Below are positions 10,035-19,738 of a stretch of 63,971 nt of DNA, in pieces (positions within the stretch are counted from its first letter, which is position 1; every line of letters begins with the position of its first letter). Source of the DNA: Bacteroidales bacterium (GTDB lineage: Bacteria > Bacteroidota > Bacteroidia > Bacteroidales > UBA7960); the NCBI GenBank assembly GCA_003567625.1, contig PWZB01000136.1:1-63971 (forward strand). The letters are read 5' to 3'. Position numbers and translations under genes: made by a program. Under the pieces are notes generated by a model, which saw nothing but the letters and a program-made list of their open reading frames with translations, did no database searches and was not told where the DNA came from.

Positions 10035-13000
10035 TCAAATTCCCGTTTGTTCTATCAAAAAATCACGTATTTTATTTCTAAATTTATTAATTTTTTGTTT
10101 TATTATAGGGATTGCGTTTTCTGCAAAGAAAATTGTTTTTGAGAATATATGGTAATATAAGGCAAAATATAGTAACAATGTAAAAATCCAAAGTATAATG
10201 AGATTAAAATAGAATGTATCATATAAATTGCCCAAAAAATGTTTTCTTGGTGCCAGGAAGTGTGACCTGAAATTAAATAATCTTTGATCCTGCGGGTCAA
10301 GATATATTGGATCGGTTTTTTGCACCAGGTGGTTATTAAGCCTTACAAGTGGTAATTCAACCATGACATTTTTGACAAAACTTGTAAGGTATTCATTATG
10401 ATAATCATTCATCAGTTGGCGATACTCCTTATGCTTTTCAGGTGTTCTTATCCTTTTTGCAATTTCCTCATCAATTGCATTGTTTACAGTATTAAAACGA
10501 GCCCGGTAAAAATCATTTAATTTTTCCAAATAGCTGGTCAGGCTATCTGCAAGCGAGGGGTTAAACTTGCCGGGTACAAGCTTATTTATTTGATTGAATT
10601 TATAATCGTGATACTGTGTGAATATGCTTTCATGCTCTTTGGTGATTTCATTTCTAAGCAGTTCAAGGTTATCTGCGCAGATAGGCTCTTCGTATCCTTG
10701 CGAAAGCCTGAATTTGTAATCCTCCACATATCTTTTCAGTTCAGGAATATAGTATACATTTTTATAATACAAAGCGCTTTCCAGTTTTCTTCGCGAATAA
10801 AAATCACGGTTATACTTATTGTTAATGTATTGATTAACAACAAGCCCTTCAAAAGCCCATCTTGAAGGCATTATTTCGGCAATAATGGGCACTTTTTCCT
10901 GCCCGCCTCCAATAGCACGGTTTATTTTATCAAAGCTAAACATTGCCCCGGTTAATACCATTTGCGGAATGATTAAAAAGGGAATCAGAATATATATTGT
11001 TATGGCTGAGTTGAAGGCTGAAGAAATATTAAGCCCCAGAACATTTGCAAATGCAGCTAGAGAGAAGAAAACTAACCAATACTCGAAATACATCCCTTTG
11101 ATTCCTAAAATATAATTTCCTACAATAATAAATAAAAATGCCTGGATGGCTGATAATATAAAAAGGATACCTGTTTTGGCGCATAAATAGCTGCTGCGGC
11201 TCAAATTTAAAAACGATTCACGTTTTAGGATTTTCCTGTCTTTGAAAATTTCTTCGGCACTGACGATAAGCCCAAGGAAAAGGGCAACAATGGTGCACAT
11301 GAAGATATAAGGCATGACGTTATCATTATTACGGAAAATATAGACATCAGATGTTGGGTCTTCTACATACCGGATCACGAAAGCAAGCAGAAATCCTAAT
11401 AAAGGAGCTTCAAGCAAGTTAAGTAAAAGGTATTGTTTGTTTGAAATCTTGGAAAAAAAGTCGCGTGAAAAAAATATTTTGTATTGATTCAGCCAATTGG
11501 GTTTTTTGAAAGATTCGGGCAGTTTGTCGAATGCACCTGTTATCTTTTTTACAGGTATTTTATTTTTAAAATGTTCGTACCACTCGGCCGGAGATACTTT
11601 TCGGTTGGCTGTTGGTTGTCCGTACTCATCAACAATTCTTGACTCAATAATGCTGAAAATGGTTTCAGGGTTGACATTACCGCAAGAGGGACATTCACCG
11701 ATATGGCTGTCTATTTGATTGTCAATCTCTTTAAAATATATTGCTGCTTCAACGGGGTTTCCGTAATAAATTTGAAATCCTCCATCATCAAGGATTGTTA
11801 CATTGTCAAACATTTTATAAATTTCGGAGGATGGTTGATGAATAACGACAAATATAAGCTTTCCCCTGACGGTTAATTCCCGCAGAAGTTCCATGACATT
11901 TTCGGAATCGCGTGAGGATAATCCTGATGTTGGTTCATCAACAAACAAAACTGCGGGTTCACGAATCAACTCAAGGCCGATATTCAATCGTTTACGTTGC
12001 CCGCCGCTAATCTCTTTATTAAGGGGGTCTCCTACTTTCAGATTTTTTATGTGCGAAAGGCCCAGGTTGAACAATACTTTGTTTACTTTGTTTTCAATCT
12101 CTTCTTCCGAAAGGCTTTTATATACTAACTTTGTGCTATAATAAAGGTTTTCATAAACGGTAAGTTCTTCAATTAAAAGATCATCTTGAGGAATATATCC
12201 GATGATACCTTTTACAAGGTCACTTTCTTCGTGCAAATCATTAGCGTTTATATATATATATCCCCTGGTCGGTTTTGCCATGCCTGACATCACATTGAGT
12301 AATGTTGTTTTGCCTGACCCGCTGGCTCCCATTATGCCTAACATTTTTCCGGATTGTTCTTCAATGCTGACTTCCCTCAGGCCAATATGACCACTAGGGA
12401 ATCTGTAATGTACTTTATCAATTTTGAAATGTACATTTATTGAGGTATCATCGGATAAAAATTTTGATGCAACATCAGTGTAAAAAATGGGTTTGCCTTT
12501 AGGTTGTTTTATTACACTACCCCTGGCAATCAAGTAAATTTTACGATTATTTATTGGTAAACCGTTCAGTAAAAGTTCCCTGGTCGAAGTATAACGAAGG
12601 AAATAAAGGTCAACACTCTGTATTCGTAAAACAATTATATTTCCTTCAAGTTGAGGGAAAAAAATATGCTTTGCTTTTTTTGTGGGGTTTTTTTTTGAAT
12701 TTATCAGTAAGATTTCCGGAATATCCCAATTTTCGATATTTTCTTCTACTACAAATGTTTCGATAGCTTTATATTCTTCTTTACTTATGTTAAAGACTTC
12801 GGCAGCAGTATCAATAATCGCCATTCTTTGGGGGGTGAATTTTTTGTCTGAATTAACAAGTTCGAATAACCTGACAAGAACAACGATTTTTTGTTTTTGT
12901 GTAAGGGTTTTATTGATTTTTTTGGCTATTCCAAGTGTTTTGACAGAATCTTTAACTGAAGTAAGTTTTGGTTTTTTTTCTTGCTCATTTTCAGAGGCTT

Positions 13001-13175
13001 TTTTATCTCCTACATAGTCATCAAACAGGGCAAGATATTCCTTAACAGAGCTTTCGTTAAGTTGCTGACGAAGAAAATTCTCAACATATACACGTTCGTT
13101 GGTTGACAGGCCAACGTCTTGCTTTGCAATAATTGCAAAGAGCTGCATCAATGCTTTTAGAATTTCTTCACTCAT
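10035..13175 (-). CDS. Fusion protein: N-terminal TerB-like module + unassigned beta-rich region + ABC ATPase + ABC-2-type permease (ABCG-like half transporter)
   Basis: Walker A is GIMGASGSGKTT, the signature is ISGGQRKRLNIGLEL and Walker B is VLFVDEPTSGLSS. Several C-terminal TM helices follow (LLNLLEAPLLGFLLAFVI, IFMCTIVALFLGLIV and others). The N-terminus EILKALMQLFAIIAKQDVGLSTNERVYVENFL resembles TerB/DjlA-N modules; that is pattern recognition only. Confidence 0.8.
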   Translation of the reverse strand: MSEEILKALMQLFAIIAKQDVGLSTNERVYVENFLRQQLNESSVKEYLALFDDYVGDKKASENEQEKKPKLTSVKDSVKTLGIAKKINKTLTQKQKIVVLVRLFELVNSDKKFTPQRMAIIDTAAEVFNISKEEYKAIETFVVEENIENWDIPEILLINSKKNPTKKAKHIFFPQLEGNIIVLRIQSVDLYFLRYTSTRELLLNGLPINNRKIYLIARGSVIKQPKGKPIFYTDVASKFLSDDTSINVHFKIDKVHYRFPSGHIGLREVSIEEQSGKMLGIMGASGSGKTTLLNVMSGMAKPTRGYIYINANDLHEESDLVKGIIGYIPQDDLLIEELTVYENLYYSTKLVYKSLSEEEIENKVNKVLFNLGLSHIKNLKVGDPLNKEISGGQRKRLNIGLELIREPAVLFVDEPTSGLSSRDSENVMELLRELTVRGKLIFVVIHQPSSEIYKMFDNVTILDDGGFQIYYGNPVEAAIYFKEIDNQIDSHIGECPSCGNVNPETIFSIIESRIVDEYGQPTANRKVSPAEWYEHFKNKIPVKKITGAFDKLPESFKKPNWLNQYKIFFSRDFFSKISNKQYLLLNLLEAPLLGFLLAFVIRYVEDPTSDVYIFRNNDNVMPYIFMCTIVALFLGLIVSAEEIFKDRKILKRESFLNLSRSSYLCAKTGILFILSAIQAFLFIIVGNYILGIKGMYFEYWLVFFSLAAFANVLGLNISSAFNSAITIYILIPFLIIPQMVLTGAMFSFDKINRAIGGGQEKVPIIAEIMPSRWAFEGLVVNQYINNKYNRDFYSRRKLESALYYKNVYYIPELKRYVEDYKFRLSQGYEEPICADNLELLRNEITKEHESIFTQYHDYKFNQINKLVPGKFNPSLADSLTSYLEKLNDFYRARFNTVNNAIDEEIAKRIRTPEKHKEYRQLMNDYHNEYLTSFVKNVMVELPLVRLNNHLVQKTDPIYLDPQDQRLFNFRSHFLAPRKHFLGNLYDTFYFNLIILWIFTLLLYFALYYHIFSKTIFFAENAIPIIKQKINKFRNKIRDFLIEQTGI

Positions 13176-13236: not shown

Positions 13237-13611
13237 TTAATAACTATGCATTTCAAATGGAATATCAACAATTTCAGAATATTCTTCACCTGCTTCAAGC
13301 ATATCTTCATCGTCTTCCTGGTAGTACCATTGTACTACCACATCATTACCTTCATTAAGGATGTCTTCAAATTTAAGAAGAATATCCAGAAGGGCTTTAG
13401 AAGACGCTGTATTAAAGTATTCCAGCCTGAATATTACGTTAGTTTTCGGATTAGGATTTTTCCCATATTCTTCAATCCATTGTATAGCCGGAGTGTAAAA
13501 AGTAACCACATCCTCAGGCAACGACCTTCCGGAAAACTCGATTATGTTGTTTTCAGCATCAAGTATTACATTAGGAGTATCATCAGTCCCTTTAATTTTT
13601 ATTACATCCAT
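13237..13611 (-). CDS. SiaC-like regulatory phosphoprotein (DUF1987)
   Basis: 124 aa. IKGTDDTPNVILDAENNIIEFSGRSLPED...IQWIEEY...FRLEYFNTASSKALLDILLKFE...VQWYYQEDDEDMLEAGEEY...PFEM aligns by eye along the whole length of P. aeruginosa SiaC. A Thr is present in the NT(S/A)S motif at residue 68. Confidence 0.8.
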   Translation of the reverse strand: MDVIKIKGTDDTPNVILDAENNIIEFSGRSLPEDVVTFYTPAIQWIEEYGKNPNPKTNVIFRLEYFNTASSKALLDILLKFEDILNEGNDVVVQWYYQEDDEDMLEAGEEYSEIVDIPFEMHSY

Positions 13612-13627
13612 ATTTATAAATTTTAAA

Positions 13628-14209
13628 TTAATCGATACTTCTTGAAATTTTAGTTCTTAAAATAAAAAACCGGTTATTCTCGTCCATTTCTGCAAAATGG
13701 TATTCCAGTTTTTCGCCGGTTTTCCTTGCAATATCAATCAGCCCTAGTCCTGCTCCCCCTTTATCGGATACTGATCCTTCCCTCATTTGTTTCTTAAACA
13801 ATTCTTTCAGGCCTTCTTTATCAAGCTGGTTAATTTTTTCCAATAGAGCTTTAAGTTCAGGCACCCTGTTTTTATCTACAGCATTGCCGGTAATAACCTG
13901 GTATTCATTTTCTTCTTTACCTATTTTACCCACAATAAAAATACCATTACCGTATTGTCCTTTATTACCCTTGTATTCATATTCTTCGGCATGTTTGCTA
14001 AGGTTTTGCAAACATTCAACCATAACATGAAAAACTTTTCTTTTTATCGAGGTATTTTCGCTGTAGCTGTTCATTTTATTTTCAGCCAACGATGTAAAAG
14101 CTTTTGTTATTTGATGCGTTATCTCTCCATCGTAGACTAAAGTGAATTTTTTAGCCATCATATCTTCATGTAAAGAGCAGATTAGCTTCAAGTAGTTTGA
14201 ATTTTCCAT
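13628..14209 (-). CDS. SiaB-like protein kinase (GHKL/anti-sigma-kinase-like)
   Basis: 193 aa. The C-terminal G-box is DKGGAGLGLIDIARKTGEKLEY. Its size and its position immediately upstream of the DUF1987 gene (16-nt gap) match siaB-siaC. Confidence 0.7.
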   Translation of the reverse strand: MENSNYLKLICSLHEDMMAKKFTLVYDGEITHQITKAFTSLAENKMNSYSENTSIKRKVFHVMVECLQNLSKHAEEYEYKGNKGQYGNGIFIVGKIGKEENEYQVITGNAVDKNRVPELKALLEKINQLDKEGLKELFKKQMREGSVSDKGGAGLGLIDIARKTGEKLEYHFAEMDENNRFFILRTKISRSID

Positions 14210-14281: not shown

Positions 14282-16873
14282 CTAAAATCTAATACCTATC
14301 ATAAGCACATCGTCAATTTGTTTATTATCTCCCAGCCATTTTATATAGTCATTTTTAAAATAAGCTAATACTTGATTCATTGGGATGTCTTTGTTTTTGA
14401 TAATAGCCTCTTTTATTCTTTTCGGGAAATATTTTTTCCCTTCAGGGCCTCCAAATTGGTCTGACAAACCATCGGAGAATATATATATTGCATCACCTTT
14501 TTTAATATCAACAACAAAATTTTCAAACTTGGGTTCCGGTTTTCCTGGCCTGGGTATTCCGCCGATTGCTGTTCTTGTTCCTCTAAATTCTTTCAGGTTT
14601 CCATCACGAACAAGGTATAACGGTCTGTGTGCACCTGCAAACTGCAGTTGCATTTTCTTAGTATTGATTTTGCATAAAGCTATATCCATCCCATCTCTTG
14701 CACTTGCGTCATCAAGGTCTTGTTTAAGAGTTTTTTGAACACCCCGGTGCAATTGACAGAGTATATCGCCAGGATTATGATCTTTTGGCTGACTGACGAT
14801 TTGGTTTATCAAAAAATATCCGATCAAAGAAAGCATAGCACCTGGAACGCCATGTCCGGTACAGTCAATAGCAGAGATAAAAACAGAATCATCTTTTTCG
14901 TATAGCCATGGAAAATCACCGCTAACAATATCTCTTGGTATATAAAACAAAAAGGAATCTGGAAATATGTTTCTTATTTGTTTTTGGTTTGGCAATAATG
15001 CATTTTGAAGCCTGAAGGCATAGTTTATACTATCGGTAATTTTTGCGTTTTTTTCTTTTATTTCCTGTTCAATTTTTTTCAGCTCGGTTATATCATGAAG
15101 GATAAAGAGTATTGTTTCCAGGCGGTCTTCCTCGTTAAATTCGGGAATAGCATTAGCATTGATGATGTGTTGTTCTTCATTGACCGGGAAAGAAATTTCA
15201 GTTTGAACCTTTTGCTTTTTATTTATTACTTTTTCAACTGTTTGATCAATAAATGTTGTTAACTCTTCGCGCAGGTCAACTTCGTTAAGATGTTTTTTGT
15301 GAAACTCTTCTGATTTCAGTTCCGAGTAGCATTCTATAGCCGGGTTGGCATAGAAAAATTGCCTGTTAAGGTCAACCCTGATAATGATATCGGGGCTGTT
15401 GTCGGAGAGCGTTTGCATTTGTCCGCGCATTCGCTGTTCTTTTTCAGCTCTTTTGCGTTCGGTAATGTCGGTAGTATTCAGAAGAAGGCCATTAATAGCG
15501 GGGTCATGCAACAGGTTACGACCGGTCGTTTCCAAAAACATTATCGAACCATGCTTGTTAAGATATGTATATTGAATCTCCTGGGGCTGGTCCGGATTTT
15601 TCAGGAGGTTTTCAAACATCTGGTTTATAGTATTCTGACCTCTTTTGTTAGTACGGTCAAAATCTTTGCCCGCAAACATATCCTCTTCAGTATAACCCAG
15701 TATATTTTTTACTGAAGGGCTGACATATTTTAATTTCTTGTTTTTATCGTATATGGTTATCAGCTCAGATGCATTTTCCAATAAAGAATAAAGCCTTTTC
15801 TGGCTCCGGTTAACTTCTTCTACCTTTTCTTCAAGATTAATGTTTGTTTTTTCGAGCTCTTCTTGTGTAAGACGCATCTCTTCGGCGTTTTGCCGGAGTT
15901 CCTCTTCATTTTCCTTAAGTTCCTGGGTCATTTCCTGCGATTCTTTCAAAAGGCGCTCGGTTTTTTCGGTTATTTTAAGATTATATATGGTTTGGGCTAC
16001 GATTTCAGCAATGCTTTTCACAAATTTTATCTCGTGTTCTTTAAAGCGTTTAAATGATGCGAATTCAAACGCCCCCTGCAGTTTTTCTTCCATAAAAATC
16101 GGTACGATAAGAATACTGTCGGGTTTTTTTTCACCAAGTATTCCGGATGTAATTGAAAGATAATAATCGGGAATTTCCGTACGGTGAACTATATCTCTTT
16201 CAATTGCTGCCTGTCCAACAAGCCCTTCTCCCACTTTTACTTCGCCTTTTAAGTATTTTCGGCGGTTGTATGCATATGAAGCGCTAACATAAAGTTTTTC
16301 AATTTCATCATCATAAATGTGAAAAACACCCTGAACCACATCAATATAATGAATCAAAGCTTCAAGTACTTCCTGAGATAGAATATTTACATCATTGTGT
16401 TTCCTGAGTATCTGGTTGATCTTATCTTTGCCAACCATTTCCCAGTTTTGCAGTGATTCTTTTTGATTGTTTTCGTGCAGTGTATCACGAAGGTTTTGTA
16501 GTGTCTTCCCAAGGGTATCGGATTCATCAGTTATTTCAAAGTCAATATCAAACTGGCCATTACCAATTTTCTCGGCAAATTCAGCAACACGGTTGATATT
16601 CTCGGTTTGGCTAATTAGTTGACCCTGAAGGGTATCGTATTGTTTTTGTAATTCTTCTTTTTTCTCAATTATCAAGTATCCCGTTATGGCAAAAACAATT
16701 GGTATTGTATCAAGTATTATCAATACGGGGTTTTGACGATGTATTTCTAAAATCCCCGATAAAGTAAATTCAATACCGGATTTACTTAATTCTATAATCC
16801 AGGCAAGAAATGGAAAAAGAAATCCTAAACCAAAAAGTAATAAAATAAATTGTTTTTTATTCAAAGACTTCAT
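14282..16873 (-). CDS. Membrane-bound multi-sensor PP2C (SpoIIE-type) phosphatase, SiaA-like: 2 TM + HAMP-like + GAF + coiled coil + 2 PAS + PP2C
   Basis: TM helices lie at residues 8-28 and 49-69. The GAF region includes GEGLVGQAAIERDIV...ILIVPIF. An acidic coiled coil covers residues 305-362. PAS-type segments follow. The C-terminal SpoIIE/PP2C domain shows DIVSGDFPWLY, AIDCTGHGVPGAMLS, IYIFSDGLSDQFGG and DDVLMIGIRF. Confidence 0.85.
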   Translation of the reverse strand: MKSLNKKQFILLLFGLGFLFPFLAWIIELSKSGIEFTLSGILEIHRQNPVLIILDTIPIVFAITGYLIIEKKEELQKQYDTLQGQLISQTENINRVAEFAEKIGNGQFDIDFEITDESDTLGKTLQNLRDTLHENNQKESLQNWEMVGKDKINQILRKHNDVNILSQEVLEALIHYIDVVQGVFHIYDDEIEKLYVSASYAYNRRKYLKGEVKVGEGLVGQAAIERDIVHRTEIPDYYLSITSGILGEKKPDSILIVPIFMEEKLQGAFEFASFKRFKEHEIKFVKSIAEIVAQTIYNLKITEKTERLLKESQEMTQELKENEEELRQNAEEMRLTQEELEKTNINLEEKVEEVNRSQKRLYSLLENASELITIYDKNKKLKYVSPSVKNILGYTEEDMFAGKDFDRTNKRGQNTINQMFENLLKNPDQPQEIQYTYLNKHGSIMFLETTGRNLLHDPAINGLLLNTTDITERKRAEKEQRMRGQMQTLSDNSPDIIIRVDLNRQFFYANPAIECYSELKSEEFHKKHLNEVDLREELTTFIDQTVEKVINKKQKVQTEISFPVNEEQHIINANAIPEFNEEDRLETILFILHDITELKKIEQEIKEKNAKITDSINYAFRLQNALLPNQKQIRNIFPDSFLFYIPRDIVSGDFPWLYEKDDSVFISAIDCTGHGVPGAMLSLIGYFLINQIVSQPKDHNPGDILCQLHRGVQKTLKQDLDDASARDGMDIALCKINTKKMQLQFAGAHRPLYLVRDGNLKEFRGTRTAIGGIPRPGKPEPKFENFVVDIKKGDAIYIFSDGLSDQFGGPEGKKYFPKRIKEAIIKNKDIPMNQVLAYFKNDYIKWLGDNKQIDDVLMIGIRF

Positions 16874-16999
16874 TTTTTAAACCGTCTTATATTCCAGAGC
16901 TTTTTTTACAAATGATTTAATAAAACTTGATTTGATATTCAAAAATAGTGGAATTCAGTTCAATTTTCATTTTTTTTATTAAAAAAATTTAAACTTAAA

Positions 17000-17893
17000 T
17001 TATTGTTTTGCAGTAATATTAATGTTCTCAAAATATTTGCCTATTTCTGCTCCAATGTTTTTAAAAAGATTAATATCATATTTTTCATAGGGCTTAAATG
17101 AAGCTATTTCTATTATACCAAGGATATTTTGTTTCTTTTTATTAGTTATCGGAAAAATAGCCATATTGTTTGGAGTTCCGCTTCCAAGCCCTGAAGAAAC
17201 TGTGATATAGCCTTCCGGGATATTGTCAAGATTAATAGGATCTCCTTGTTTGGCGACCTGTCCGACCAACCCTTCTCCAATCTCAAACTCAAAGATCTTT
17301 TCTTCAGGAATATAATAGGCATACGTTGCCATTAAAACCAATTTATCTTTTTTATTATCTGATTGCTTTAAATACAATTCACCTTGTGCAAGTTCATAAA
17401 ACTTGCCAATACATGACAAAACTGTCTTTGATATTTTTTTTGGGTCTTTGATTTTTGGGATGTTTTCTTTAAAACATTCAATCATTTTTTTTTCTCTTTC
17501 CTCATATTGCTTTTCCAATTGTCTTATACGTTCTTTTTCCTTTTGTGCTTTTTCTTCTTCCGACTCATCTTCCTTTTTTATTGAAGTATATTGATCAGGT
17601 GATTGCCGGTCCGGGATTTTCTTTTTCAATTGCGCCATTAAATTACTCAATTCAATAACAGCAAGAATAAAAAAAGTGGTAAATGGAATAACCAAAAGCA
17701 GGATCATGAAAAGGAATAAATAATAAAATTCTATCTCAACATTAGCGAATTCGGGTGTTTGCGAAAGAGTATCATATATAGCATTGCTGTATCTGAACAA
17801 AAAGAGGGAAAAAATTATCATTACAACCGCCAGAACAAGATATATAATGAATTTTCCGTACCTGAATAATTCCTTAAATTGATTATTTTTCAT
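17000..17893 (-). CDS. Membrane-anchored GAF-domain protein
   Basis: It has two N-terminal TM helices, a Glu/Lys-rich coil (EDESEEEKAQKEKERIRQLEKQYEEREKKM) and a C-terminal GAF-like region (GEGLVGQVAKQGDPINL...MAIFPI...GIIEIASF). Confidence 0.7.
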   Translation of the reverse strand: MKNNQFKELFRYGKFIIYLVLAVVMIIFSLFLFRYSNAIYDTLSQTPEFANVEIEFYYLFLFMILLLVIPFTTFFILAVIELSNLMAQLKKKIPDRQSPDQYTSIKKEDESEEEKAQKEKERIRQLEKQYEEREKKMIECFKENIPKIKDPKKISKTVLSCIGKFYELAQGELYLKQSDNKKDKLVLMATYAYYIPEEKIFEFEIGEGLVGQVAKQGDPINLDNIPEGYITVSSGLGSGTPNNMAIFPITNKKKQNILGIIEIASFKPYEKYDINLFKNIGAEIGKYFENINITAKQ

Positions 17894-18026
17894 TTATAAA
17901 TCTATTGTATTATATATAAAAAATTATGCTGTATTATAATTTTTTAAGCGTTAAAAGTAAACAATTTTGAACTATATTATTAGATATTTTATCAATTTTA
18001 TATTAAATTTTTATTATAATAAAAAA

Positions 18027-18596
18027 CTATTTTTGTAATAATAAATAAAAAAATTTAATTATTTCATCACTTTTAAGAACATAGTCAACATTTTTGGTTT
18101 TATCAATAGCAGCCACCGGCATAGTTGGCATTTGTGCATCTGAGGGATTTTGTACAACCGTGATGCCTCCATAATCCTTTATTTTTTTCAATCCTGAAGC
18201 TCCATCTTTATTTGCGCCTGACAAAACAACACCAACACATTTGTTTTTATAAGCATATCCACCTGTCATAAATGTCAGATCAATACTTGGCCTGGAGTGG
18301 TTAACAGATTGTTCTGTTGATAAAGCAAACGTGCCTGTAAGCTCAATATATAAATGATAATTAGCCGGTGCCAGATATATGTAACCGGATTTGATTTTAT
18401 CTTTGTCAAATGGTTCAACAATAGGCATGTTTGATTTGAAAGACAATGTTTCAACAAAACCATGCCTTACATGTTTTAAACGGTGCAATGCCAAAACTAC
18501 CGGTATGGGATAATCTTTTGGAAGACCTGATATAAGCTTTGTTATGACCTGAAAACTTCCCGCTGACCCCCCAATAATTATCAATTTAATATTCAT
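18027..18596 (-). CDS. cheB: CheB-type protein-glutamate methylesterase, catalytic domain only (no receiver domain)
   Basis: 189 aa. Motifs: IIIGGSAGSFQVI (Ser), VVLALHRLKH (His), VVLSGANKDGASGLKKIKDYGG (Asp region), VVQNPSDAQMPTMP. The ORF begins directly with the catalytic domain. Confidence 0.8.
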   Translation of the reverse strand: MNIKLIIIGGSAGSFQVITKLISGLPKDYPIPVVLALHRLKHVRHGFVETLSFKSNMPIVEPFDKDKIKSGYIYLAPANYHLYIELTGTFALSTEQSVNHSRPSIDLTFMTGGYAYKNKCVGVVLSGANKDGASGLKKIKDYGGITVVQNPSDAQMPTMPVAAIDKTKNVDYVLKSDEIIKFFYLLLQK

Positions 18597-18629
18597 TTAA
18601 ATAATGTATTGCCTGTTATCAATTTATTA

Positions 18630-19475
18630 TCAGCCGGTTTTTTTATAAATTTTTTCGTTTTTGTTTATTTCAGTAAATTTATAATAATCTTTACACCATG
18701 ATATATTTTCCATGTTGCCTACAACTAAATAACCATTATAAGCAAGGTTGTTTGCAAACAGCCCTAAAAGCATTTCCTGATATTGCTGAGTGTAATATAT
18801 AAAAATATTCCTGAAAATTATAACATTAAATCCCCTGATTCTTTGGGCATCCTGGTATTTATAAAGGGAAAATTCAATGTTTTCATATATGTCGTTTTTG
18901 ATCCTGAAACCGTTTTTGACAGGTAAGATATGCCTGGAAAGACTGGCTTTCCCTTCATTGAATCTTTGATAATTAGTTTCGCTTATCTCAATATTTTTGC
19001 TTGAATAAACCCTTTTTTCCAGGTTTTGAATAATAAATTGTGAAATGTCTGTTGCCAGGATTTCGGTCTTATGTTTTAAACCGGCTTCGTTTATTATAAT
19101 TGCGGAGGTTATTAACTCTTCTCCTGATGAGCATCCGGGAATCCATATTTTTATTCGTGTATCTTTCTTATCAAGCGAGGGTAACATTTCATCGCGAAAA
19201 TATCGCCAAAATGCAGGGTCACGAAAAAATTCCGTACACTCTACGTTTATATCACTTAAAAACTTTTCAAAAAAAGTTTTATCAGTAATTAACTTGTCGG
19301 TTAAAGTATCAAAACCTTTTAATTCGTTTATTTGCATAGCCCTTATAATGCTTCTTTTGAAGAAAGTTAATGCAAAACAACCCAAGTCAAAACCATGTGC
19401 TGTTTTAATGGCTTCAATAAGATTCCGGATACCTGAAATACTGATCTCTATCTCCTTGCCTAATTCATTATTCAT
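18630..19475 (-). CDS. cheR: CheR-type protein-glutamate O-methyltransferase
   Basis: 281 aa. The N-terminal helical domain contains TEFFRDPAFW. The SAM-binding block is IWIPGCSSGEELITSAI. FNVIIFRNIFIYY is also present. Confidence 0.8.
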   Translation of the reverse strand: MNNELGKEIEISISGIRNLIEAIKTAHGFDLGCFALTFFKRSIIRAMQINELKGFDTLTDKLITDKTFFEKFLSDINVECTEFFRDPAFWRYFRDEMLPSLDKKDTRIKIWIPGCSSGEELITSAIIINEAGLKHKTEILATDISQFIIQNLEKRVYSSKNIEISETNYQRFNEGKASLSRHILPVKNGFRIKNDIYENIEFSLYKYQDAQRIRGFNVIIFRNIFIYYTQQYQEMLLGLFANNLAYNGYLVVGNMENISWCKDYYKFTEINKNEKIYKKTG

Positions 19476-19574
19476 TTGATATGTCTAAGCGAATTCGCAA
19501 CAAATATACTAAAATTATTATTCCATGAATTCAATTATATCCAATAATAATTAAATAGCCTTAACAATGTCATT

Positions 19575-19738
19575 GAATTACGAAAGTTATCGAATTACGA
19601 ATTTATTACGAATATACGAATTACGAATATTAATTCCGATTACCTGCCGACTGCCGATTGCCGATTGCCGACTGCCGACTGCCGACTGCCGATTGCCGAC
19701 TGCCGTCATACCGATTTACCACCCGCCATCCGTTACCC
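19575..19738. repeat. Composite short-tandem-repeat element: TTACGAA-type AT-rich units, a CCGATTACC joint, then 9 x TGCCGAY heptamers (19645..19707) and a C-rich tail
   Basis: Read directly: tgccgac tgccgat tgccgat tgccgac tgccgac tgccgac tgccgat tgccgac tgccgtc. A 7-nt period is incompatible with coding. Confidence 0.9.

Follow-up and report, generated by a model that had tools for sequence, protein, structure and literature searches.

Reversible methylation of glutamate residues is the textbook memory device of chemotaxis, and its two enzymes, CheR and CheB, raise the question of what they modify where no chemoreceptor is encoded beside them. The question is posed here by a nine-gene cluster of a Bacteroidales bacterium (assembly GCA_003567625.1, contig PWZB01000136.1; the whole stretch from position 1 to 63,971 of its forward strand, in nucleotides (nt), is referred to as the window). 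According to the list of open reading frames (ORFs), all nine genes run in one direction on the minus strand, with cheR first, followed by cheB, a gene for a transmembrane (TM)-GAF protein, a gene for a PP2C-type sensor phosphatase, siaB- and siaC-family genes, a gene for a TerB-ABC exporter, and two small overlapping genes last (Table 1). A sequence-only reading of the window had given the order and coordinates of cheR, a receiver-less cheB, the TM-GAF gene, and the PP2C sensor gene, and these agree with the ORFs and the Pfam matches. On direct observations of gene content, synteny, conservation, helix geometry, and the absence of methyl-accepting chemotaxis proteins (MCPs), the cluster is probably, in our judgement, a sensory module of the MAC2 (methyl-accepting coiled-coil) type, with a SiaA-like PP2C phosphatase as its output instead of a histidine kinase.

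Apparently intact CheR and CheB in a genome without chemoreceptors

Both enzymes were compared with domain models and solved structures. CheR was matched by PF01739 with 113 bits (cut-off 27), and its S-adenosylmethionine-binding motifs IWIPGCSSGEE, ATDIS, and FRNIFIYY and its FFRD arginine align with those of solved CheR proteins (5ftw and 1af7); its score on the chemotaxis equivalog NF007902 lies below the threshold (53 vs. cut-off 435). In the CheB of the window, Ser11, His38, and Asp131 fall on the triad of catalytic residues in the solved structures 3sft and 1chd, and PF01339 gave 158 bits. Judged from these alignments, CheR and CheB look catalytically intact. The catalytic domain of CheB begins at residue 6 of 189 and the CheB_methylest match covers residues 6-181, so the N-terminal receiver domain is absent, as had been read from the sequence. 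The NCBIfam chemotaxis subfamilies of CheB score under their cut-offs on this protein, which is the sole CheB of the genome. Among the 150 closest CheB representatives (from 1.8 billion proteins), almost all are about 190 amino acids (aa) long, with a few CheB-CheB and CheB-CheR fusions, and by this measure the receiver-less, stand-alone CheB is a large family of its own. A CheB without receiver has also been described from Campylobacterota, in the F3 class (PMC9239204).

Three CheR proteins are encoded in the genome, namely that of the window and two others (C138:11727-12584 and C159:1639-2466, given as contig and positions) whose neighbouring genes were uninformative. The C138 protein is the orthologue (about 50% identity) of a second cheR product whose gene precedes a receptor gene in expanded versions of the cluster, and the C159 protein is nearest to a CheB-CheR fusion kinase, in the CheR domain of the latter. 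No MCP, CheA, or CheW is encoded within the window, as the sequence-only reading had stated. The genome-wide search that it had proposed was run on the whole assembly (2.38 Mb, 199 contigs, 88.9% complete) and gave zero matches to MCPsignal (PF00015) and zero to the CheW domain, the latter search being one that would also have caught CheA.

To collect the surroundings of related genes, each species with CheB was represented by one genome, and 25 CheB-anchored loci were obtained. The order cheR-cheB-TMGAF-sensor-siaB-siaC-TerB/ABC-x(-x) was found in full in 18 of the 25; four loci (L006, L013, L016, and L018) are broken by contig ends, and all genes retained in them stand in the same order. The loci came from Bacteroidales, Tenuifilaceae, 'Rikenellaceae', Flavobacteriales, and Tunicatimonas metagenome-assembled genomes. 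The same gene order recurred in two further genomes found independently with the coil profile and at all three of the divergent sensor homologues that were chosen out of 120 clusters. In all related loci that were examined, cheR and cheB keep their synteny with the PP2C sensor gene. Five of the carriers are free of MCPs (G001, G003, G005, G017, and G018, the locus of the last ending after cheB), and the other CheB-anchored carriers have 1 to 18 MCPs. A gene for a receptor-like protein (periplasmic sensor-TM-HAMP-GAF-coil-PAS, with no output domain) lies just upstream of cheR-cheB in 13 loci, and the second cheR precedes this receptor gene in 10 of the 13; the contigs of L016, L018, and L020 end before that position.

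The association was also counted in a phylum sample of 401 genomes, 34 of which bear the GAF-coil module described below. CheB is present in 29 of the 34 module-bearing genomes vs. 210 of 401 (52%) overall, and 27 of the 33 module-bearing genomes other than the present one, almost all of them complete, have no MCP. Strict dependence of the module on CheB was considered and rejected, as five module genomes with weaker matches lack both CheB and CheR. Their matches are GAF-coil-HisKA kinases, whose helices share the same start (LLxQSQSLTDELRRTNEEL...) and lack the run RQN-x-EEM-xx-T-x-EE.

The glutamate-rich helix and the phosphatase behind it

The sensor consists of two TM helices, a HAMP-like segment, a GAF domain, a long helix, two PAS domains, and a PP2C domain. 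An AlphaFold2 model of it was built from 49 sequences (mean predicted local distance difference test score (pLDDT) 82), and by DSSP residues 279-366 form one continuous helix of 88 residues from the last GAF helix to the first PAS domain. Confidence drops to a pLDDT of about 45 over residues 338-368 of this monomer model, as would be expected where a monomer model is made of a presumably dimeric coil. The glutamate-rich segment to which the sequence-only reading had drawn attention (residues 305-362) corresponds exactly to nt 15961..15788. Seven hydrophobic residues (L319, L326, M333, L340, L347, V354, and L361) are spaced exactly seven residues apart and occupy heptad position a; position d is polar (N322, N329, T336, and T343), and positions f and g hold the pairs Q317-E318, E324-E325, E331-E332, E338-E339, and E352-E353.

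Conservation along the helix was measured in 120 sensor relatives with 58-100% identity. The glutamates of the pairs are conserved at frequencies of 1.00 (E318), 1.00 (E324), 0.98 (E331), 0.98 (E332), 0.96 (E338), and 1.00 (E339), and glutamine and glutamate interchange at positions 314, 317, 325, and 352. Most other residues of the helix are conserved as strongly, including the exposed R327, Q328, N329, A330, T336, and N344. Conserved exposed residues at positions b, c, e, f, and g are as expected if the surface serves for docking as well as modification. An orthologue with 83% identity to the sensor (L010:11653-14253) has one substitution in each of three glutamate pairs (NEEKL, NAEAM, and TQKEL), which could make it a naturally 'neutralised' variant or could reflect relaxed constraint.

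The spacing was then expressed as a heptad pattern ([STN]xEE[LMIV]xx, at least two in-register repeats) and sought in the 5,133 open frames of the genome. Four of them match, namely the sensor and three receptor-like proteins, vs. 0.05 expected from shuffled sequences; among the proteins of the cluster, glutamate pairs in this heptad setting were seen in the sensor alone. The sequence-only reading had likened the coil to an (S/T)NEEL-repeat linker of CheB-CheR fusion kinases. Such a linker does exist: 16 fusion proteins of the phylum carry runs such as SQEELKSTNEEMQSANEELQSTNEELTTSKEEMQSLNEELQTVNQEL directly before PAS domains, and all 16 match the same pattern. The fusion-kinase heptad LQSTNEE and the window heptads MRLTQEE and LRQNAEE have a common design, with L or M at a, T or N at d, and EE at f-g. 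The resemblance is real at the pattern level, because 4 of 5,133 ORFs of the genome match vs. 0.05 from shuffles, as do all the fusions. The comparison of profiles that had been proposed along with it gave weak matches only: a profile hidden Markov model (HMM) of the 16 fusion-kinase coils scored a receptor-like protein on contig C26 (E = 0.001) and one on C18 (E = 0.015), ranked first an OmpA-like coiled coil that is unrelated and strongly biased in composition, and did not list the window sensor at E ≤ 10. Profile-level homology of the sensor coil to the coils of the fusions (class MAC1, see below) was given up on this result, and what the sensor and fusion-kinase coils appear to share, at the pattern level, is a design and not a demonstrated homology.

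Further proteins with this helix were found in the genome. The search of all open frames for heptad-spaced EE pairs brought up four more proteins with the core SQKQ-AEEM-RAQ-EEEM-RQN-MEEM-HAT-QEEM, and a profile of the GAF end plus coil gave seven matches, two of which are halves of one gene split over contigs C114 and C111, whose ends overlap in sequence. The genome thus encodes six GAF-coil proteins, of which one is the PP2C sensor and the other five have no enzymatic output. The input parts of these five receptor-like proteins are of dCache, 4HB-like, or two-TM type, followed by HAMP-GAF-coil, and a PAS domain comes after the coil in four of the five, being absent in the C156 protein. The sensor and receptor families align free of gaps over 78 residues, and in both of them the columns of the core E-E-x-R-Q-N-x-E-E-x-x-x-T-x-E-E show little or no variation. 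The five receptor-like proteins are at least as good candidate substrates as the sensor.

The TM-GAF protein was assessed in the same way. Its gene always stands between cheB and the sensor gene in related loci, and its GAF domain belongs to the same subfamily as that of the sensor. The glutamate-rich peptides that had been quoted from the two proteins are present in their translations, and both had been put forward as non-MCP methylation substrates. The TM-GAF linker (EDESEEEK...) is charged and variable in sequence and length among 19 orthologues, in which the GAF domain is conserved, and it was rejected as a specific methylation substrate on this ground. As a putative target of CheR and CheB, the helix of the PP2C sensor is well supported by the lack of MCPs, synteny, and conservation, and the TM-GAF half of the proposal is unsupported.

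The output end of the sensor was identified from domain models. Its SpoIIE/PP2C domain scored 66 bits and HisKA and HATPase domains are absent by Pfam; the NCBIfam SiaA model (NF038263) gave 160 bits (cut-off 700), with the PP2C part alone matched. The metal-binding motifs D670-x-T-G-H-G, D801-G-x-x-D805, and D854-D855 are invariant in 49 relatives. The next gene product is a SiaB-family kinase (NF038262, 171 bits vs. cut-off 85), and the one after it a SiaC-family protein (PF09345, 141 bits; NCBIfam SiaC, 88 bits, under the equivalog cut-off of 150). Because a SiaB-family kinase and a SiaC-family protein adjoin the PP2C protein, the sensor is taken as the phosphatase of a SiaA/SiaB/SiaC-type partner switch with an unrelated and much larger input region, and the SiaC-family protein is the presumed substrate of both phosphatase and kinase. 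The cluster has no GGDEF gene for a diguanylate cyclase; the TerB-ABC exporter comes after siaC instead, and always does so in related loci. The TerB-like domain of the exporter, about 250 residues before its Walker A motif, is a candidate docking site for SiaC that would replace the missing diguanylate cyclase, with the exporter as the putative target of the switch.

A proposed methylation module without MCPs and its alternatives

In the scheme that we infer, which takes in methylation itself, the residues modified, the direction of its effect, and the exporter as target, signals would be received by the HAMP-GAF part of the sensor, which is anchored in the membrane, and be passed along the helix of residues 279-366 through the two PAS domains to the PP2C domain. 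The latter would dephosphorylate SiaC and SiaB would rephosphorylate it, and the phosphorylation state of SiaC would control a partner, for which the neighbouring TerB-ABC exporter is the most likely candidate. CheR would methylate exposed f-g glutamates (Q317/E318, E324/E325, E331/E332, and E338/E339), and the receiver-less CheB would strip the methyl groups and may deamidate glutamine sites. Charge neutralisation would shift the packing of the helix and reset the phosphatase output, the result being gain control or adaptation without CheA feedback, and feedback, if there is any, would lie in how far the conformation lets the enzymes reach the helix. The CheR and CheB of the window and the two further CheRs would probably also act on the five output-less receptor-like proteins, which have the same helix core. 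An extension of this scheme, which must be called doubtful, is a whole chemoreceptor-like network without MCP, CheA, or CheW, in which the five receptors would form pairs or clusters with the PP2C sensor, which would stand in for CheA, SiaB/SiaC would play the role of response regulator, three CheRs and one CheB would provide adaptation, and the exporter rather than motility would be controlled.

Several points weigh against the MAC2-type assignment. The main one comes from the GAF-coil kinases of the genomes free of CheR and CheB, whose helices keep one to three acidic f-g pairs (TNEEL and QKEEV); because of this, part of the acidic pattern is intrinsic to the helix type irrespective of methylation enzymes. 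Conservation in the 120 relatives spans the whole helix, beyond the glutamate pairs, and the L010 and L022 sensor orthologues keep cheR and cheB and yet have lost several pairs (QQAEL/NAVEM at the pair sites in L022). The sensor sites do not, by eye, fit the strict MCP site consensus, which we take to be [ASTG][ASTG]xx[EQ][EQ]xx[ASTG][ASTG]; EEMRAT, present in most orthologues, fits the older Glu-Glu-X-X-Ala-Ser/Thr form, and the window version is EEMRLT. To these are added the silence of the fusion-coil HMM on the window sensor, the incompleteness of the assembly, and the state of the literature as of 2022, when MAC proteins, described as joint receptor and kinase, were not experimentally characterized (10.1101/2022.05.07.491037).

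The first alternative, regarded as unlikely, is that CheR and CheB modify the output-less receptors only, which would signal to the sensor, the coil of the latter being an unmethylated homologous helix. The repeat of the receptor paralogues is cleaner (SEEMxAQ EEEMRQN MEEMxAT QEEM) and its EE pairs are fully conserved, two sensor orthologues having lost some of theirs; two receptors and not the sensor are scored by the fusion-coil profile; and in the expanded clusters it is the receptor gene, rather than the sensor gene, that stands directly between two cheR genes. Against this, the window genome and its nearest relatives keep cheR-cheB with the sensor though their operon is without a receptor paralogue, and the core RQN-x-EE-M-xx-T-x-EE varies just as little among the sensors.

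Less likely still, and improbable as a whole, is that the coil is an ordinary signalling helix (S-helix) and that the substrate of CheR and CheB lies elsewhere in the cluster, for example in SiaC, the TM-GAF protein, or the TerB domain of the exporter, or that the two enzymes have a role other than on protein glutamates. Such a reading would account for the EE heptads retained by GAF-coil kinases where CheR and CheB are absent, for the conservation of the whole helix with the glutamate pairs not singled out, and for a likeness to MAC1 coils at the pattern level only. It is opposed by the lack of heptad EE pairs in every other cluster protein and of conservation in the TM-GAF linker, by the presence of CheB with the GAF-coil module in 29 of 34 genomes against a background of 52%, and by an experimental precedent that is exactly a helix after a GAF domain (RsbK, see below). 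That CheR and CheB serve canonical chemoreceptors missing from the incomplete assembly (88.9%, 199 contigs) is very improbable, since, for all that several cluster-bearing genomes hold 5-18 MCPs and that in the complete genome G268, of the same taxonomic order, a full MCP-CheA-CheW-CheR-CheD-CheB operon directly precedes the cluster, MCPsignal and CheW are at zero here and MCPsignal at zero in G001, G003, G005, G017, and G018, 27 of 33 module-bearing and almost all complete genomes are MCP-free, the che operon where present has its own receiver-bearing (REC) CheB and CheR, and the closest relatives of the window CheB are all receiver-less.

The preferred MAC2-type reading was set beside described systems. 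The MAC classes, predicted by Wuichet & Zhulin 2010 (Sci Signal 3:ra50), have models in MiST3 (PMC6943060); MAC1 proteins are fused to CheB and CheR, and MAC2 proteins are encoded alongside them. The present cluster resembles MAC2 in that stand-alone CheR and CheB are encoded two genes upstream, in the same operon, of a sensor with a glutamate-rich heptad coil and without an MCP signalling domain, in that many carrier genomes have no other chemotaxis genes, and, at the level of pattern though not of profile, in a heptad design common to the MAC1 fusions; its membership, drawn from gene layout and coil pattern and from the MAC models as described, is putative. It differs from MAC2 in that a SiaA-type PP2C output leads to a SiaB/SiaC switch and an ABC exporter, the sensor itself has no kinase domain, and five paralogues are output-less.

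A second parallel is offered by the RsbK-RsbM-RsbY sigma-B module of Bacillus cereus (Chen et al. 2012 Environ Microbiol 14:2788), in which the methyltransferase RsbM, presumably of CheR type, acts on the hybrid kinase RsbK. The methylated site is the S-helix that follows CHASE3-HAMP-GAF in RsbK, methylation represses a pathway that runs via the PP2C phosphatase RsbY to a partner switch, and RsbM has no paired esterase, the authors discussing it against chemotaxis CheB (PMC4574943). Compared at the level of described architecture rather than by alignment, RsbK appears to share with the sensor the order of HAMP or HAMP-like segment, GAF, and helix, a cheR gene lies close to that of the sensor, and both pathways involve a PP2C phosphatase and a partner switch. 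The hybrid histidine kinase reaches RsbY by phosphotransfer, whereas helix and PP2C lie in one polypeptide here; a receiver-less CheB is present here, unlike the unpaired RsbM; and the switch is of STAS/anti-sigma type there and of SiaB/SiaC type here. RsbK/RsbM is the only experimental demonstration of such non-MCP methylation found in the literature.

The switch itself recalls that of Pseudomonas aeruginosa, whose SiaA is not known to have an associated CheR or CheB. In SiaABCD of this species (Chen et al. 2020 EMBO J 39:e103412 and 2021 eLife 10:e67289, as cited in PMC9239204), as here, genes for a PP2C phosphatase, a SiaB-family kinase, and a SiaC phosphoprotein stand in that order; the present cluster differs in having no SiaD diguanylate cyclase, with the TerB-ABC exporter next instead, and in the unrelated input part of its phosphatase. 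Canonical MCPs (Tar and Tsr) have homologous enzymes and likewise carry Glu/Gln pairs seven residues apart on the exposed face of a dimeric helix after HAMP. The present system differs from them in lacking an MCP signalling hairpin (no PF00015 in the sensor), CheA, CheW, and a CheB receiver, and in site context, position d being polar (N or T) and positions f-g being taken by the EE pair.

No paper was found in the literature in which CheR or CheB is tied to a switch of SiaABC type or to a helix fused to PP2C. As a kind of system the proposal has forerunners, since it matches MAC2 and has the RsbK/RsbM precedent; what is new is the wiring, in which one polypeptide joins the helix to a SiaA-type phosphatase and this feeds a SiaB/SiaC switch beside an ABC exporter, with output-less receptors and extra CheRs in MCP-free genomes. 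The sensor family comprises more than 120 sequence clusters and the gene cluster occurs in several orders of Bacteroidota. It offers a compact test case, as the putative methyl-accepting helix is fused to a PP2C enzyme that is easily assayed, with SiaC as its presumed substrate, neighbouring genes encode both modifying enzymes, and many carriers have no confounding MCPs. If the MAC2-type reading is true, methylation-based adaptation would extend to Ser/Thr phospho-switches, and the 'orphan' CheR and CheB genes common in non-motile Bacteroidota would be given a function.

Features of the window and variant loci

Table 1. Positions of the cluster genes, the helix, and the promoter motif in the window, and of the receptor-like genes on other contigs
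Feature	Position	Strand	Description
cheR	18630..19475	minus	281 aa, stand-alone protein-glutamate O-methyltransferase; Pfam CheR, 113 bits
cheB	18027..18596	minus	189 aa, methylesterase/deamidase catalytic domain alone; Pfam CheB_methylest, 158 bits, residues 6-181
TM-GAF gene	17000..17893	minus	297 aa, two TM, variable charged linker, GAF; Pfam GAF_2
SiaA-like sensor phosphatase	14282..16873	minus	863 aa; Pfam GAF/PAS/PAS/SpoIIE
Long helix, residues 279-366	15776..16039	minus	DSSP on AlphaFold2 model; last GAF helix to first PAS
Candidate methyl-accepting core, residues 317-339	15857..15925	minus	Heptad register and conservation
SiaB-family protein kinase	13628..14209	minus	193 aa; NCBIfam SiaB_fam_kinase and Pfam DUF6272
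SiaC-family phosphoprotein	13237..13611	minus	124 aa; Pfam SiaC, 141 bits
TerB-ABC exporter	10035..13175	minus	1046 aa; ABC_tran and ABC2_membrane, N-terminal TerB-like domain (Pfam)
Two overlapping genes, 320 aa and 150 aa	8627..10038	minus	Close the conserved nine-gene unit
-7 promoter motif match TATATTTG	19501..19508	minus	TAnnTTTG, Bacteroidota consensus
Five output-less receptor-like proteins	C18:6869-8833, C18:8903-11233, C26:18164-20632, C156:15610-17454, C114:1-976 + C111:4605-5630		HAMP-GAF-coil proteins on other contigs

Pfam and NCBIfam searches gave no family match for the 320-aa and 150-aa proteins encoded at the end of the cluster. At its other end, the sequence-only reading had pointed to a promoter motif near cheR. 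The match TATATTTG is present, and 25 nt separate it from the cheR ATG. The motif TAnnTTTG is not enriched in the window (79 observed vs. 93 expected), and for this reason only the position of TATATTTG, and not the match itself, suggests a cheR promoter. A second TAnnTTTG match, TATTTTTG (window 16940-16947, minus strand), lies in the 126-nt gap between the TM-GAF and sensor genes and could be an internal promoter.

Two loci outside the common arrangement were recorded. The complete genome G268, from the same taxonomic order, has the cluster (L031/L037, G268:C1:2362001-2396000), and a full MCP-Hpt-CheA-CheW-CheW-CheR-HK-CheD-CheB(REC) operon lies directly upstream, followed on the same strand by genes for a cytoplasmic GAF-coil-PAS protein, two CheRs, and the CheB without receiver, after which come the remaining cluster genes. 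None of the 25 other loci has a che operon adjoining the cluster, and a general link between the two was rejected as lineage-specific, the adjacency occurring in G268 alone, where it may be a trace of the origin of the module or a functional link. A receiver-less CheB/CheR pair with 42% identity was found in a different context (L027:7769-10980). Genes for two single-domain receivers and a REC-coil-HisKA kinase stand before it, and after it comes one for a membrane protein that is cut by the contig end.

Upstream of cheR in the window, a 500-nt region separates this gene from a divergent transporter gene. Repeats of 7 nt (GTCGGCA/ATCGGCA as read on the strand of cheR; window 19575-19738) follow one another there, after AT-rich repeats of TTCGTAA type.

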